IMG/VR virus record: IMGVR_UViG_2711768059_000002
Reading direction: 5' to 3' (one strand)
Origin: a virus
Taxonomy: Duplodnaviria; Heunggongvirae; Uroviricota; Caudoviricetes
Length of the DNA stretch: 7,085 bases
This document shows positions 1-7,085 of the stretch, in pieces (position 1 is the first letter of the stretch; each line of letters begins with the position of its first letter). The notes below the pieces were generated by a model, which did not search any database, had not been told where the DNA came from, and saw only the letters and a list, made by a program, of their open reading frames with translations. Both the position numbers and the translations under genes were made by a program.

Positions 1-2325
1 ACTGTTCCCTGAATTATTTATATCCCTGACAACAATTTCACCAGAAGCGTTAGCGGCCCTTAGTTCAGTTTGATCGACAACCGGACCTCCTTCGGATTGT
101 AATCTTTGAGAAACAAATGTTCTGTTTGAAACGTCCGTACCATACGCGGTGAAAGATTGTGTTGCTTTAATCTGACCATTGTTTACAAATATAGGAATAG
201 TGACGGTAAAATTTTTGTCAAAACTCAGGCCATTTGTTAATGCAATCCTTTCTGACACCCCTTGTCTGAACGGAAGGTTGCTGTAGAAGCCATGTTCACC
301 GCCAGTGAAGTCAAGAACATTTTTAACAAAGTTCTTGTCGTTATCCTCCGTTGACGTTGATACACCAAACTTATATCTAACCCCGTTGTCACCAATTACG
401 TAGTCTTCTGTTGGAACCTTAACTTTCGCCTTGTAGCCAGTTTGCACAACGACAGGAAAAGCGCTTTTATGGATGTAGAAAGCTACATGCTGCGCATAAT
501 CTCTTTGCGACGCTTTAATGCAAAGTATCCCGAGTTCATTTTTTTCATAGCAAACAAATGACCCGTAAGCCACATCGCGAACGTCACTCCAGCCACCACA
601 TCGAATGAACCCAAAAAATGAGTTACTATTAAGCGGATTTGATGCCGGACCTCCTGCTGTTTTTATTTCAACAGGACATAACATAGCACCGCTCCCATTC
701 ATTGCGGATGTGTCTATTATGACAGGGTAGTATTTGCCATCCACTGCACCACCAGGGGCATTAAGGGTCATCGCTTTTGTTAATCCACCCTCAGGGATTT
801 GCAAATTAGTTTTGGCGTCATCAAGGCTATTTGCGCCAGTGCCACCATGAGAAACATCAAGCGGTATCCATTTTTTTTGTGTGTCGCTGTAACACCCCCA
901 TGTTGATCCGGTTAAACCCAGGCGCATGGATTTATCATGGTTATATAACCATGTTTCGCTATTCCATTGGTCAAGACGGTCCACTTCATTTTTGCGAGCG
1001 TGGCGTGTCCATTGCGGGCCTGTTGTCGGATTCCAGCGATAAGTATAAAGCGAGCGCGTAGCCCATCCCTGAAATACACCTGTATACGCTGGAGTTCCAT
1101 CTACCTGACTAATAAACCCCGTAAGACTGCTTTCACCGGATGCAATCGATGGAAAGCCTTTTGCATTACTCATAATGCGCATAAATCCGATATACCCTGA
1201 TGGGTTGCCGGAAATATCAGGACAATCACGCGGGGCTGAGCCAAGACCGATATTATCGCCAACAATTACTTGCGCCTGGTTGCGATAATTAAGTGCGTCC
1301 GCCGCAGATTTCGCCGCGTTTGTTTCACTGGATTTAGCATTAGTTTCGCTGGCTTTAGCGTTTGTTTCGCTGCTCTTTGCTGCTGCCTCGCTATTTTTCG
1401 CGTTGGTTTCTGATTTTTTGGCTGCTGTCGCGGAGTTTGCCGATGCAGTTTGTGAGTCTGCTGCCGCCTGTGCGCTGTTATCCGCATTCGTCTCAGACGT
1501 TTTTGCGGCCTTCGCGGAATTTCCTGCCGCCGTTGCCGAGGAAGCTGCACTACTGGCACTTGATGATGCGTTCGTTTCTGATGATTTTGCCGCCTCTTTT
1601 GAGGCCGCCGCATCCCTGGCTGAGGTGGCAGCTTCTGACGCTTTCGTGGTCGCGGTGGATGCAGAAGTGGCGGCTGATTGTTCTGACGCTGCCGCATTCG
1701 TTTCTGACGTTTTCGCCGCACCGGCACTGGTAGCCGCCGCGCTTTTTGAGGACTCTGCAGCGGCAGCACTTTTTGAGGCTTCAGTGGCCTTTGTTGATGC
1801 CGTTCCTGCGCTGGAAGACGCTGACTGAGCCGACGACGCGGCCTGCCCGGCTGATGTGCTGGCTGCACGTGCTGAGCCTGTAGCATCAGTCGCATGGGTT
1901 GCCGCCTCACGGGCTGATGTGCCGGCATCGCTGGCTGACTTCTTCGCGGCTGCCGTGTCCTGTGCCACTGCGGACGCGTTACGCGCCACCTCTTCCACCA
2001 TCAGTTCAAAGCGGCGCAGTGCCTCCGGACGGGCATCATCCTCCGTCATGGCACCGAGAAAATCATTCAGCGTACCCGGTTGTGAGTCTTCATACACGGT
2101 GATGGTCCCGGCATGCGATGGCGGGAAGCCTTCCACCAACAGAATAACGCTGTACTGACCGTACTCAACGTCCATGCTGTAACGCCCTGCTTCATCCGGA
2201 TTTTCAGATGCCACCGTGTTCACCACCACCGTGGTGCTGTTACGTTTTGCTTTCAGCTGGATTGTGCAGTTCTGTACCGGTTTACCTGCACCGTCTTTCA
2301 GTACACCTGAAATCTTTACTGCCAT
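1..2325 (-). CDS. stf: Side tail fibre protein (lambda Stf-like), N-terminal 775 codons; the C-terminus and stop codon lie beyond the window start
   Basis: Hand translation of the minus strand from ATG at 2325..2323 gives MAVKISGVLKDGAGKPVQNCTIQLKAKRNSTTVVVNTVASENPDEAGRYSMDVEYGQYSVILLVEGFPPSHAGTITVYEDSQPGTLNDFLGAMTEDDARPEALRRFELMVEEVARNAS..., which matches the lambda Stf N-terminus as I remember it. The frame stays open for all 775 codons to position 1; I spot-checked codon by codon at 1..240, 790..900 and 1201..1320, and residue numbering stayed consistent (V355 at 1261..1263). A GGGGTG Shine-Dalgarno-like motif sits 3-5 nt upstream of the ATG (plus 2329..2334). Not in the ORF track because no stop is in the window. 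An Ala/Ser/Thr-rich shaft follows the N-terminal domain, then a different, lower-GC distal region. Confidence 0.9.
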   Translation of the reverse strand, partial: MAVKISGVLKDGAGKPVQNCTIQLKAKRNSTTVVVNTVASENPDEAGRYSMDVEYGQYSVILLVEGFPPSHAGTITVYEDSQPGTLNDFLGAMTEDDARPEALRRFELMVEEVARNASAVAQDTAAAKKSASDAGTSAREAATHATDATGSARAASTSAGQAASSAQSASSSAGTASTKATEASKSAAAAESSKSAAATSAGAAKTSETNAAASEQSAATSASTATTKASEAATSARDAAASKEAAKSSETNASSSASSAASSATAAGNSAKAAKTSETNADNSAQAAADSQTASANSATAAKKSETNAKNSEAAAKSSETNAKASETNAKSSETNAAKSAADALNYRNQAQVIVGDNIGLGSAPRDCPDISGNPSGYIGFMRIMSNAKGFPSIASGESSLTGFISQVDGTPAYTGVFQGWATRSLYTYRWNPTTGPQWTRHARKNEVDRLDQWNSETWLYNHDKSMRLGLTGSTWGCYSDTQKKWIPLDVSHGGTGANSLDDAKTNLQIPEGGLTKAMTLNAPGGAVDGKYYPVIIDTSAMNGSGAMLCPVEIKTAGGPASNPLNSNSFFGFIRCGGWSDVRDVAYGSFVCYEKNELGILCIKASQRDYAQHVAFYIHKSAFPVVVQTGYKAKVKVPTEDYVIGDNGVRYKFGVSTSTEDNDKNFVKNVLDFTGGEHGFYSNLPFRQGVSERIALTNGLSFDKNFTVTIPIFVNNGQIKATQSFTAYGTDVSNRTFVSQRLQSEGGPVVDQTELRAANASGEIVVRDINNSGNS
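1297..1965 (-). repeat. Low-complexity Ala/Ser/Thr-rich coding repeat region of the Stf shaft (about aa 121-343), including five tandem 21-nt heptad units at 1309..1413
   Basis: Hand translation shows repeated K-x-SETNA motifs (KTSETNAAAS, KSSETNASSS, KTSETNADNS) and, at aa 305-339, five consecutive heptads SETNAKN / SEAAAKS / SETNAKA / SETNAKS / SETNAAK. These correspond to imperfect 21-nt tandem copies such as AGCGAAACAAACGCTAAAGCC on the minus strand. The Ala-rich plus-strand ORF 1403..1828 and the Arg/Gln/Pro-rich minus ORF 1266..1928 in the track are alternative-frame readings of this same repeat. Confidence 0.7.
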
Positions 2326-2334
2326 ATTCACCCC

Positions 2335-2363
2335 ACAAAAAAGCCCGCCTGAACCGGCGGGCT
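2335..2363 (-). terminator. Putative Rho-independent terminator downstream of lom (minus-strand orientation)
   Basis: Plus 2342..2349 (agcccgcc) pairs with 2356..2363 (ggcgggct), giving an 8-bp GC-rich stem with a 6-nt loop (2350..2355). On the minus-strand transcript the hairpin is followed by a U-tract (plus a-run 2337..2342, read as UUUUUUG). It lies between the lom stop (2390..2392) and the stf start (2325). The plus-strand orientation has no U-tract. Confidence 0.6.
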
Positions 2364-2389
2364 GTCATAACACTGTGTTACCTGGCTAA

Positions 2390-2989
2390 TCAGAACTTAT
2401 AACCGACACCCACGATGAAACCGTCAGTGCGCCAATCGCCACTGCCGGAGCCTTCATAAACAATATCAATGGCCACGGATTCGGTCGGGTTAAACTGCAC
2501 GCCAGCCCCCCACGCCAGAGACGTGTTGCTGCGGCGACCGTCATCACTTCCGGTCAGCACTTCGTGCGTTTTCCCCTTGTTGTCAGTTACGCGGAGATAA
2601 TCCCCGGAGAAAGTCGAAATACGGCTGTAAGCCACACCCGCCATCGCATACGCGCTGAACCATTCATTCACGCGCACAGACGGCCCCGCCATCACGCTGA
2701 ACCAGCGGTTACGCACGGAATCTTCATGCCAGCGGGTATCGCTGTAATGAGTCAGCTGGCGATTCTTGTCTTCTGCATAGCTGAATGACGTCACCATCCC
2801 CAGCGTGTCCGTAAACTCATAACGGTATTTCACGTTAATCCCGTTAAGATCATCGCTGCCGGGAACGTTCGTCGAGGCATGAAGATACCCCGCGCTCAGC
2901 GTGGACTGATGTTCAGACGCCCATGCAGGCGCACCGGATACGGCCAGACAGATGGCTGCGGACAAAATGGCGGCATAAAGTTTACGCAT
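2390..2989 (-). CDS. lom: Outer membrane protein Lom (Ail/Lom/PagC/OmpX family eight-stranded beta-barrel), 199 aa
   Basis: ORF track 2390..2989 on the minus strand. N-terminal signal peptide MRKLYAAILSAAICLAVSGAPAWA with an AxA cleavage motif; C-terminus ends in the aromatic YKF typical of outer-membrane beta-barrels. The sequence matches lambda Lom as I remember it. ATG at 2989..2987 is preceded by GAGAGG (plus 2995..3000), 5 nt upstream. An in-frame TAA further upstream rules out a longer N-terminus. Position immediately after J is the canonical lambda location. Confidence 0.93.
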   Translation of the reverse strand: MRKLYAAILSAAICLAVSGAPAWASEHQSTLSAGYLHASTNVPGSDDLNGINVKYRYEFTDTLGMVTSFSYAEDKNRQLTHYSDTRWHEDSVRNRWFSVMAGPSVRVNEWFSAYAMAGVAYSRISTFSGDYLRVTDNKGKTHEVLTGSDDGRRSNTSLAWGAGVQFNPTESVAIDIVYEGSGSGDWRTDGFIVGVGYKF

Positions 2990-3010
2990 AATTACCTCTC
3001 GCTTTTCTGC

Positions 3011-3037
3011 AATAAAAAAGGCGTCATTTCTGACGCC
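3011..3037 (-). terminator. Putative Rho-independent terminator downstream of J (minus-strand orientation)
   Basis: Plus 3020..3026 (ggcgtca) pairs perfectly with 3031..3037 (tgacgcc), a 7-bp stem with a 4-nt loop that reads GAAA on the minus strand. On the minus-strand transcript it is followed directly by UUUUUUAUU (plus a-run 3014..3019). It lies between the J stop (3056..3058) and the lom RBS. Confidence 0.6.
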
Positions 3038-3055
3038 CGTTATGGGTTATAAAAT

Positions 3056-6457
<3,402 letters not shown>

Positions 6458-6476
6458 TCATGCTCCATAAACGATA

Positions 6477-6496
6477 AAACCGCCCGGAGGCGGTTT
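6477..6496 (-). other. Intergenic stem-loop between I and J; possible mRNA structural or weak attenuator element
   Basis: Plus 6477..6484 (aaaccgcc) pairs perfectly with 6489..6496 (ggcggttt), an 8-bp stem with loop cgga. On the minus strand it sits between the I stop and the J RBS, followed by UAUCGUUUAU. The U-run is short and partly inside the stem, so this is not a convincing terminator. Confidence 0.3.
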
Positions 6497-6514: not shown

Positions 6515-7085
6515 TCAGCGACCAATCACCACAACCTGACCACCGTCCCCTTCGTCTGCCGTGCTGATCTCCTGAGAAACCACGCGTGACCCCACGCGCA
6601 TTTCCCCGTACAGAACAGGCAGAACATTGCCCTGGGCAACCATGTTATCCAGTGACGAGAAATAGGTGTTCTGTTTGCCGTTATCTGTACTTGCTGCCGT
6701 GGGCGTCCTGGCTTTCGGTGCCAGCATCTGCGCCACTCCGCCCAGGATCATACTGGCCCCTGCCGCATACATGCCCGATACAGCCGCGGCACCCAGCCAG
6801 CCCACAGGGTTCCACCATGCCACCGCAATCAGCGCCGCCCCCAGCACCACCTGAAACACACCGCCACTTTTAGCTCCCGCCAGACGCGGCACGATGTGGA
6901 TCACGGCACCATTTGCCAGCGGCTCATTAAGACGGGCAGACAATTCGGTTTCACCTGCATCACGCCCGGCAATGCGTACCTGGTACCAGCCGTCGCTCAG
7001 TTTCTGACGAAACGCCGGGTTCTGCATGGCCAGCGCCCGGATGGCTTCGGACCCCGTTTTCACTCGAAGGTCGATGCGGCGGCCA
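6515..7085 (-). CDS. I: Tail assembly protein I, C-terminal portion; the 5' end lies beyond the window end
   Basis: ORF track 6515..7063 on the minus strand. The M shown at 7063 is a GTG codon that is internal Val; the frame stays open to the window edge and translates as ...GRRIDLRVKTGSEAIRALAMQNPAFRQKLSDGWYQVRIAGRD...SQEISTADEGDGGQVVVIGR. This matches the C-terminal part of lambda gpI as I remember it, and the position immediately upstream of J fits. Confidence 0.88.
   Translation of the reverse strand, partial: GRRIDLRVKTGSEAIRALAMQNPAFRQKLSDGWYQVRIAGRDAGETELSARLNEPLANGAVIHIVPRLAGAKSGGVFQVVLGAALIAVAWWNPVGWLGAAAVSGMYAAGASMILGGVAQMLAPKARTPTAASTDNGKQNTYFSSLDNMVAQGNVLPVLYGEMRVGSRVVSQEISTADEGDGGQVVVIGR

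Follow-up and report, generated by a model that had tools for sequence, protein, structure and literature searches.

The window analyzed here, a 7,085-nt stretch of a tailed-phage genome (Caudoviricetes; IMG/VR record IMGVR_UViG_2711768059_000002), is the J–lom–stf junction of the tail (late) operon of a lambda-like prophage, and all of its genes lie on the minus strand. Many lambdoid and Stx-converting phages share the segment at 96–97.5% identity, the best match of the full window among E. coli prophages is 97.6% identical, and the lom–stf junction is found in ~78% of complete E. coli genomes. In the order of the coding strand, its genes and noncoding features are as follows.

7063..6515, minus strand: I-like tail assembly gene
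6476..6493, minus strand: terminator-like hairpin in the I–J gap, CCGCCTCCGGGCGG followed by TTTT
3056..6454, minus strand: J, tail tip attachment/host specificity protein of 1132 aa, with six J-specific Pfam domains
3011..3038, minus strand: hairpin U, stem GGGCGTCA/TGACGCCT, loop GAAA, tail TTTTTTATT, from scan, RNAfold and covariation
2990..3010, minus strand: lom leader, GCAGAAAAGCGAGAGGTAATT, 21 nt, with the RBS GAGAGG at 3000..2995
2390..2989, minus strand: lom, encoding a 199-aa Ail/Lom-family outer-membrane beta-barrel precursor (PF06316)
2368..2380, minus strand: perfect 6-1-6 palindrome TAACACAGTGTTA (13 bp), between the lom stop and hairpin D
2337..2363, minus strand: hairpin D, stem AGCCCGCC/GGCGGGCT, loop GGTTCA, tail TTTTTT
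1..2334, minus strand: stf, side tail fibre of 775 aa (PF08400, phage_tail_N), ATG at 2325, open to the window edge

Lom matches PF06316 (Ail_Lom) over residues 1–199 of the 199-position profile (E = 4e-121, 402 bits against a cut-off of 23), which bears out its initial assignment to the Ail/Lom/OmpX family. The translation begins with a signal peptide, MRKLYAAILSAAICLAVSGAPAWA, and ends in ...VGYKF, with a C-terminal aromatic residue. Relatives of Lom in the PDB are lambda Lom (9wso_C), OmpX (1qj8) and Ail (3qra). In entry 9wso, chain C is the lambda "Outer membrane protein lom", one chain among others, and Lom is therefore in a complex there; the entry contains no J or Stf N-terminal chain, and the partner of Lom in it could reveal the real function of the protein. 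Downstream of lom, the stf frame runs from 2325 to the window edge with no stop codon. The distal part of stf (window 1..1725, minus strand) has GC and GC3 values of 0.47 and 0.40, compared with 0.58 and 0.56 in the first 600 nt of the gene, a drop that points to a mosaic joint within the tail-fibre gene.

That Lom is a lysogenic-conversion or moron gene is already textbook knowledge, Lom being a standard example of a prophage gene that alters the host surface, and the J–lom–stf arrangement is ordinary lambdoid architecture. What the present analysis offers is a small refinement, namely that of the two hairpins flanking lom only D travels with it.

Hairpins in the intergenic gaps

A consensus scan of the window returned 10 terminator-like sites, a number not above chance (7.1 +/- 3.2 in shuffles); hairpins U and D, with 8 pairs each, are the best two and stand out by quality. 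For ranking only, we scored sites by hairpin energy plus T-tail, using a formula that is reportedly that of d'Aubenton-Carafa from 1990. D reaches +42.8, the best score, followed by U (+30.8) and the I–J gap hairpin (+19.3), with all other sites on both strands below 0; on the opposite strand, neither U nor D scores as a terminator. RNAfold recovers both stems from the minus-strand segments 2326..2389 and 2990..3055. When compared with dinucleotide shuffles, U folds with z = -3.2 (0/200 shuffles fold as well) and D with z = -2.2 (7/200). The GC-rich hairpins with U-tracts that the initial annotation had placed on either side of lom, on the minus strand, are thus found at those positions, fold as proposed and are the two top-scoring sites of the window. 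Its further observation, that each hairpin leads almost directly into the RBS of the next gene, also holds: the lom RBS GAGAGG begins 10 nt past the U T-run, and the stf RBS GGGGTGA (2334..2328) begins 2 nt past that of D. An Rfam scan of the window gave only isrG and ST7-AS1_2, with scores far short of the gathering thresholds, and the two hairpin regions thus correspond to no known RNA family. The K-12 3'-end mapping (Term-seq) supplements searched contain no lomR or stfR entries.

Hairpin U is formed by 8 pairs between 3038..3031 and 3026..3019 (dG -11.4 kcal/mol), and its GC-rich stem passes directly into TTTTTTATT, which runs to 3011. Across 12 distinct variants, 96.8% of the cells at stem positions are paired, compared with 35–60% in controls in which the 3' side is shifted. 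Changes on both sides are seen in three pairs (GC<->AU 7:5, CG<->UA 8:3 and AU<->UA 11:1), the covariation score was equalled in 0/500 shuffles, and the T-run columns (6 or more T) after the stem are invariant. The U stem is kept by compensatory changes. A further class of 36 loci, typified by L103, has a different U stem in the same layout (GGGCACCT-CAGG-AGGTGCC and variants). At one locus (L025) the U loop is exactly reverse-complemented, from GAAA to TTTC, on an unchanged stem, as expected from inversion of the palindrome centre.

Hairpin D pairs 2363..2356 with 2349..2342, also over 8 pairs (dG -16.0 kcal/mol), and its TTTTTT tail runs to 2337. It is nearly invariant, even beside Lom alleles that are 46–47% identical to the window Lom. 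Its four changes are one-sided, with pairing kept as G-U, and there is zero covariation, a consequence of this near invariance, so that support for D is thermodynamic, positional and conservational in kind. The palindrome TAACACAGTGTTA just upstream is conserved in lambda and at nearly all lom loci, with ~1.7 palindromes like it expected by chance in 7 kb, and may form a small additional stem or be bound by a protein. In sequence and predicted fold, U and D look like real, sense-oriented intrinsic terminators.

The 60-nt I–J gap holds the third and last positive-scoring site (hairpin scored at 6493..6480), and three of three coding-strand intergenic gaps therefore carry a terminator-like hairpin. 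Hairpins of this type thus occupy every gap of the operon segment and have no particular tie to lom. Lambda has the same hairpin in its I–J gap. Overlapping the I–J hairpin is GTGAAA-17 nt-TATCGT, which weakly resembles a promoter arranged in the "coupled" manner described below.

Limits of the lom cassette

To delimit what accompanies lom, we compared four sets of loci: 80 viral loci selected with the window Lom, 41 genomic loci selected with the stf N-terminus, 80 viral loci selected with the lom-less stf N-terminus and 80 viral loci selected with lambda Lom. Where the flanks of window-type loci sufficed, 71 had J upstream and stf downstream, and the only 2 exceptions were IS insertions. At other sites J is followed directly by stf. 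Such an arrangement is seen in Escherichia ruysiae (L101), Escherichia sp. (L104) and phage 21, and lom-less J–stf junctions were counted in 22 phage records, in 19/80 viral loci and, among 5426 complete E. coli genomes, in at least 1179. The order at these empty sites is the J stop, ~17 nt, GGGCRCCAGAAATGGYGCC TTTTTTATT and, directly, TGTGGAGTGAATATG of stf. At empty sites ...GCC TTTTTTATT is joined to TGTGGAGTGAATATG, and at filled sites the same ...GCC TTTTTTATT is followed by a segment that opens with GCAG, includes lom and closes with GGCGGGCTTTTT, after which TGTGGGGTGAATATG resumes. Written out by its parts, the filled site reads TTTTTTATT, GCAGAAAAGCGAGAGGTAATT-ATG, lom, hairpin D with TTTTT and then TGTGGGGTGAATATG. 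This comparison defines one more feature.

2338..3010, minus strand: lom cassette, 673 nt, with the lom leader as its left end; the right edge can be placed at more than one position of the T-run

The leader is missing from empty sites and present in all window-type filled sites, and D is likewise missing from empty sites and present only alongside lom. As delimited by these alignments, the cassette comprises the 21-nt leader with its RBS, lom and D, the last being its own predicted intrinsic terminator. U behaves differently, being found at every lom-less J–stf junction examined and varying there as it does at filled sites. Since the lom-less junctions keep U and TTTTTTATT, followed by the stf RBS, U is assigned to the tail-operon backbone and not to the lom unit. 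lom itself is an optional insert, the structural genes on either side of it being direct neighbours in related phages; the difference between filled and empty sites may reflect either a gain of lom by insertion or its loss through deletion from one T-run to the other.

These limits bear on whether lom is a moron, as the initial annotation proposed in describing it as a moron-like cassette bracketed by two intrinsic terminators. The moron definition is that of Juhala et al. (2000), as restated by Cumby et al. (PMC3594210), a paper in which Lom is called a moron product. Of the features by which morons are recognized, the window presents an extra gene between genes adjacent in relatives and a factor-independent terminator of its own, hairpin D. 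A promoter of its own was not found by the sequence scans described below, and base composition does not deviate (GC of 0.555 in lom, 0.563 in J and 0.542 in the window; GC3 of 0.625 in lom and 0.673 in J). The cassette, being apparently promoterless and ordinary in composition, would be only partly moron-like, and of the two bracketing terminators D can be counted as part of it and U, kept where lom is absent, cannot.

The reading that we favor, with a probability of roughly 70%, is that U is a backbone terminator after J, that lom sits behind it in a cassette with its own terminator D, and that both are bypassed through Q in lytic growth. Its closest rival, a classical self-contained moron in which lom and both hairpins were imported as one transcription unit, would account well for an optional gene with a cassette-borne D and would agree with the moron label given to Lom in PMC3594210. 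We nevertheless consider it quite unlikely, given that U occupies the lom-less junctions and varies in them as at filled ones, that the 21-nt leader has no promoter and the GC content is that of the neighbours, and that the I–J gap holds an equivalent hairpin. Deletion events that spared U might in principle explain the empty sites, but the structure of U is under selection where lom is absent. If the favored reading is right, a backbone U and a promoterless cassette show what moves when lom is gained or lost.

We also considered and rejected the idea that lom and the J receptor-binding domain are inherited as a unit, with Lom as a receptor-masking partner. Lom and J alleles reassort freely (r = 0.004, a qualitative result, the sample having been picked by Lom or stf similarity), and the allele comparison thus gives no support to a J–Lom functional unit. 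This free reassortment of Lom and J receptor-domain alleles marks U as a recombination boundary.

Several loci that looked exceptional have simple explanations. Two candidates for lom in other upstream contexts proved to be insertions at U, namely an IS4-family element inside the hairpin (L014, 2900..2975) and an IS66-family element just past its T-run (L015, ~2945..2982). A 1.4-kb J–stf gap, considered as a second cargo gene (L139), contains instead lom and an IS200-family element located at the D T-run (2770..3490). IS elements have thus settled repeatedly in or beside the two hairpins, and terminator hairpins may be preferred IS targets. At two loci (L083 and L108, ~1570..2745), insertions of ~1.2 kb split lom. 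Two apparent highly divergent Lom alleles are Shigella flexneri pseudogenes of window-type lom, multiply frameshifted, with U and D intact beside them (L115, 2313..2910; L120, 2354..2944).

A separate group of genomic contigs (L085-L100, L102, L105, L107, L109, L116-L118 and L121) is lambda-identical in Stf and Lom where checked; in L085-L093 Lom is 100% identical to that of lambda. Lambda-like contigs occur in assemblies of Leeuwenhoekiella, Shewanella, Desulfosporosinus, Oceanobacillus, Kitasatospora, Bradyrhizobium and other organisms, at ~1x coverage and in some cases with a length of ~48.4 kb. Their presence in such unrelated organisms is almost certainly contamination of public genomes with lambda control DNA.

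Transcription of lom

On the coding strand, the consensus scan gave no sigma70-like site in the 21-nt lom leader or anywhere in I, J or lom. Scanning 400 nt upstream of lom under relaxed sigma70 criteria, in 7 alleles, yielded no candidate at a conserved position. Within the lom leader there is no -10-like hexamer upstream of the ATG, the single one overlapping the ATG itself. A PhoP-box scan upstream of lom gave 16 matches, compared with 10.5 +/- 3.5 expected, a chance level with none suggestive. These results agree with the earlier statement that the short stretch from U to the lom ATG does not accommodate a convincing sigma70 promoter; the distance from the U T-run to the ATG is 21 nt, and because the cassette begins there, it has no room for a promoter. 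Expression of lom in a lysogen would then have to depend on polymerase leaking past U or on initiation, weak or non-canonical, at a site that overlaps U.

Q acts on the lambda late operon. Under the favored reading, Q-modified RNA polymerase arriving from pR' would ignore U, D and the I–J hairpin during lytic growth, and a single late transcript would serve I, J, lom and stf; the window includes neither Q nor pR', and this read-through is proposed by homology with lambda. In PMC10325885, processive antitermination is described as the bypass of multiple terminators regardless of their sequence. In the repressed prophage, by the same analogy, unmodified polymerase would stop at each hairpin. U would block stray transcription from the tail genes, insulating lom and stf, and D would keep whatever transcription of lom there is from extending into stf and tfa.

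Reports on lambda lom in lysogens are mixed. It is listed among lysogen transcripts in an array study (PMC1151598), as summarised in PMC2147009, whereas PMC2147009 itself gives lambda lom as undetected. The lom gene of phi24B, a distant homologue in another context, is equally expressed in lysogens and after induction. An efficient U would make the lysogenic expression that has been reported for Lom hard to account for without a further promoter.

One source of such a promoter could be U itself. A preprint (10.64898/2026.08.19.745784) describes 540 coupled terminator–promoter pairs in E. coli, in which the -10 hexamer directly follows the T-tract and the transcription start lies ~10 bp past the termination site. 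By analogy, the stem DNA and T-run of U would double as a promoter, and lom transcription would start ~10 nt past the termination point. The lambda locus has this feature: its U is followed by TATTAT (6.7 of 8.6 bits), which ends 20 nt before the ATG and leaves a short leader with the RBS. In the window, the U T-run is followed at best by TTTATT (2.4 bits), a hexamer without the essential -11 A. Moreover, -35 matches are poor in every U class, the lambda-type U was found only as identical copies, which give no basis for judging the conservation of TATTAT, and the preprint does not address this locus. We therefore regard a promoter-coupled U as very unlikely to be the explanation for the window. 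A broader proposal takes lom to be a promoterless cassette behind the backbone terminator and makes U the element that governs lysogenic expression, either as a leaky attenuator or as a dual promoter–terminator, apparently functional in lambda and degenerate in the widespread window-type allele. We hold this to be improbable; were it true, lysogenic conversion would be a property of some lom alleles and not of others. With U in the backbone and no promoter in the cassette, the old remark that "little is known about the lom promoter" becomes a testable choice between read-through of U and initiation overlapping it.

That the hairpins serve chiefly to stabilise 3' ends of the long late mRNA or to block its processing, shielding the J and lom segments from 3' exonucleases, is highly improbable, for the occurrence of a hairpin in all three coding-strand gaps, the conservation of the stems (which fits both roles) and the irrelevance of termination to an antiterminated polymerase in lytic growth are outweighed by the conserved run of 6 or more T after each stem, needed for termination and not for exonuclease protection, and by the naming of the phage 21 copy as a terminator by independent annotators, the two roles not being mutually exclusive.

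Comparison with known systems

The eight-stranded outer-membrane barrels Ail, OmpX and PagC have in common with the window Lom a full-length family match, an N-terminal signal peptide and a C-terminal ...GYKF. However, they are encoded by chromosomal or plasmid genes with their own regulated promoters, whereas the window Lom is the product of a prophage late-operon gene. The Lom of phage phi24B is ~40% identical to the window Lom, over the aligned part only, and stands in a different context. phi24B encodes a microRNA-size RNA, 24B_1, "between lom and vb_24B_43" (PMC4426718); a counterpart in the window was sought and rejected, as the 428-bp phi24B spacer has no similarity to the window and the promoter motif is missing.

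The morons of HK97 and HK022 (for example HK97 gene 15), described by Juhala et al. (2000) as summarised in PMC3594210, resemble lom in being non-essential extra genes between tail genes, and they resemble the lom cassette in having their own terminator and a product that acts on the lysogen envelope. The classical morons there described also have their own promoter and a differing GC content, and the window cassette has neither.

Comparison with lambda (NC_001416, 18903..19650) reveals the same layout, piece for piece, from the J stop through the stf RBS: a hairpin with a T-run, a ~20-nt leader with an RBS, lom, TAACACAGTGTTA, D and the stf RBS. However, the upstream hairpin of lambda, CGTCCG-GGAA-CGGGCG followed by TTTTATTAT, is unrelated in sequence to the window U, and it is succeeded by a good -10-like hexamer that the window lacks. 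The two Lom proteins are 46% identical and the C-terminal domains of J ~40% identical. In addition, identity between the two phages reaches 88–97% over the final ~60 nt of lom, hairpin D and the beginning of stf, compared with 30–60% in the body of lom, a pattern typical of lambdoid mosaicism.

Phage 21 (OL657228) provides the complementary case. After J it carries hairpin U as in the window backbone, GGGCGCCAGAAATGGCGCC with TTTTTTATT, followed by the stf RBS, and its depositors annotated this hairpin as "terminator" and then the stf ribosome-binding site. Having neither the lom cassette nor hairpin D, phage 21 represents the empty site corresponding to the window.
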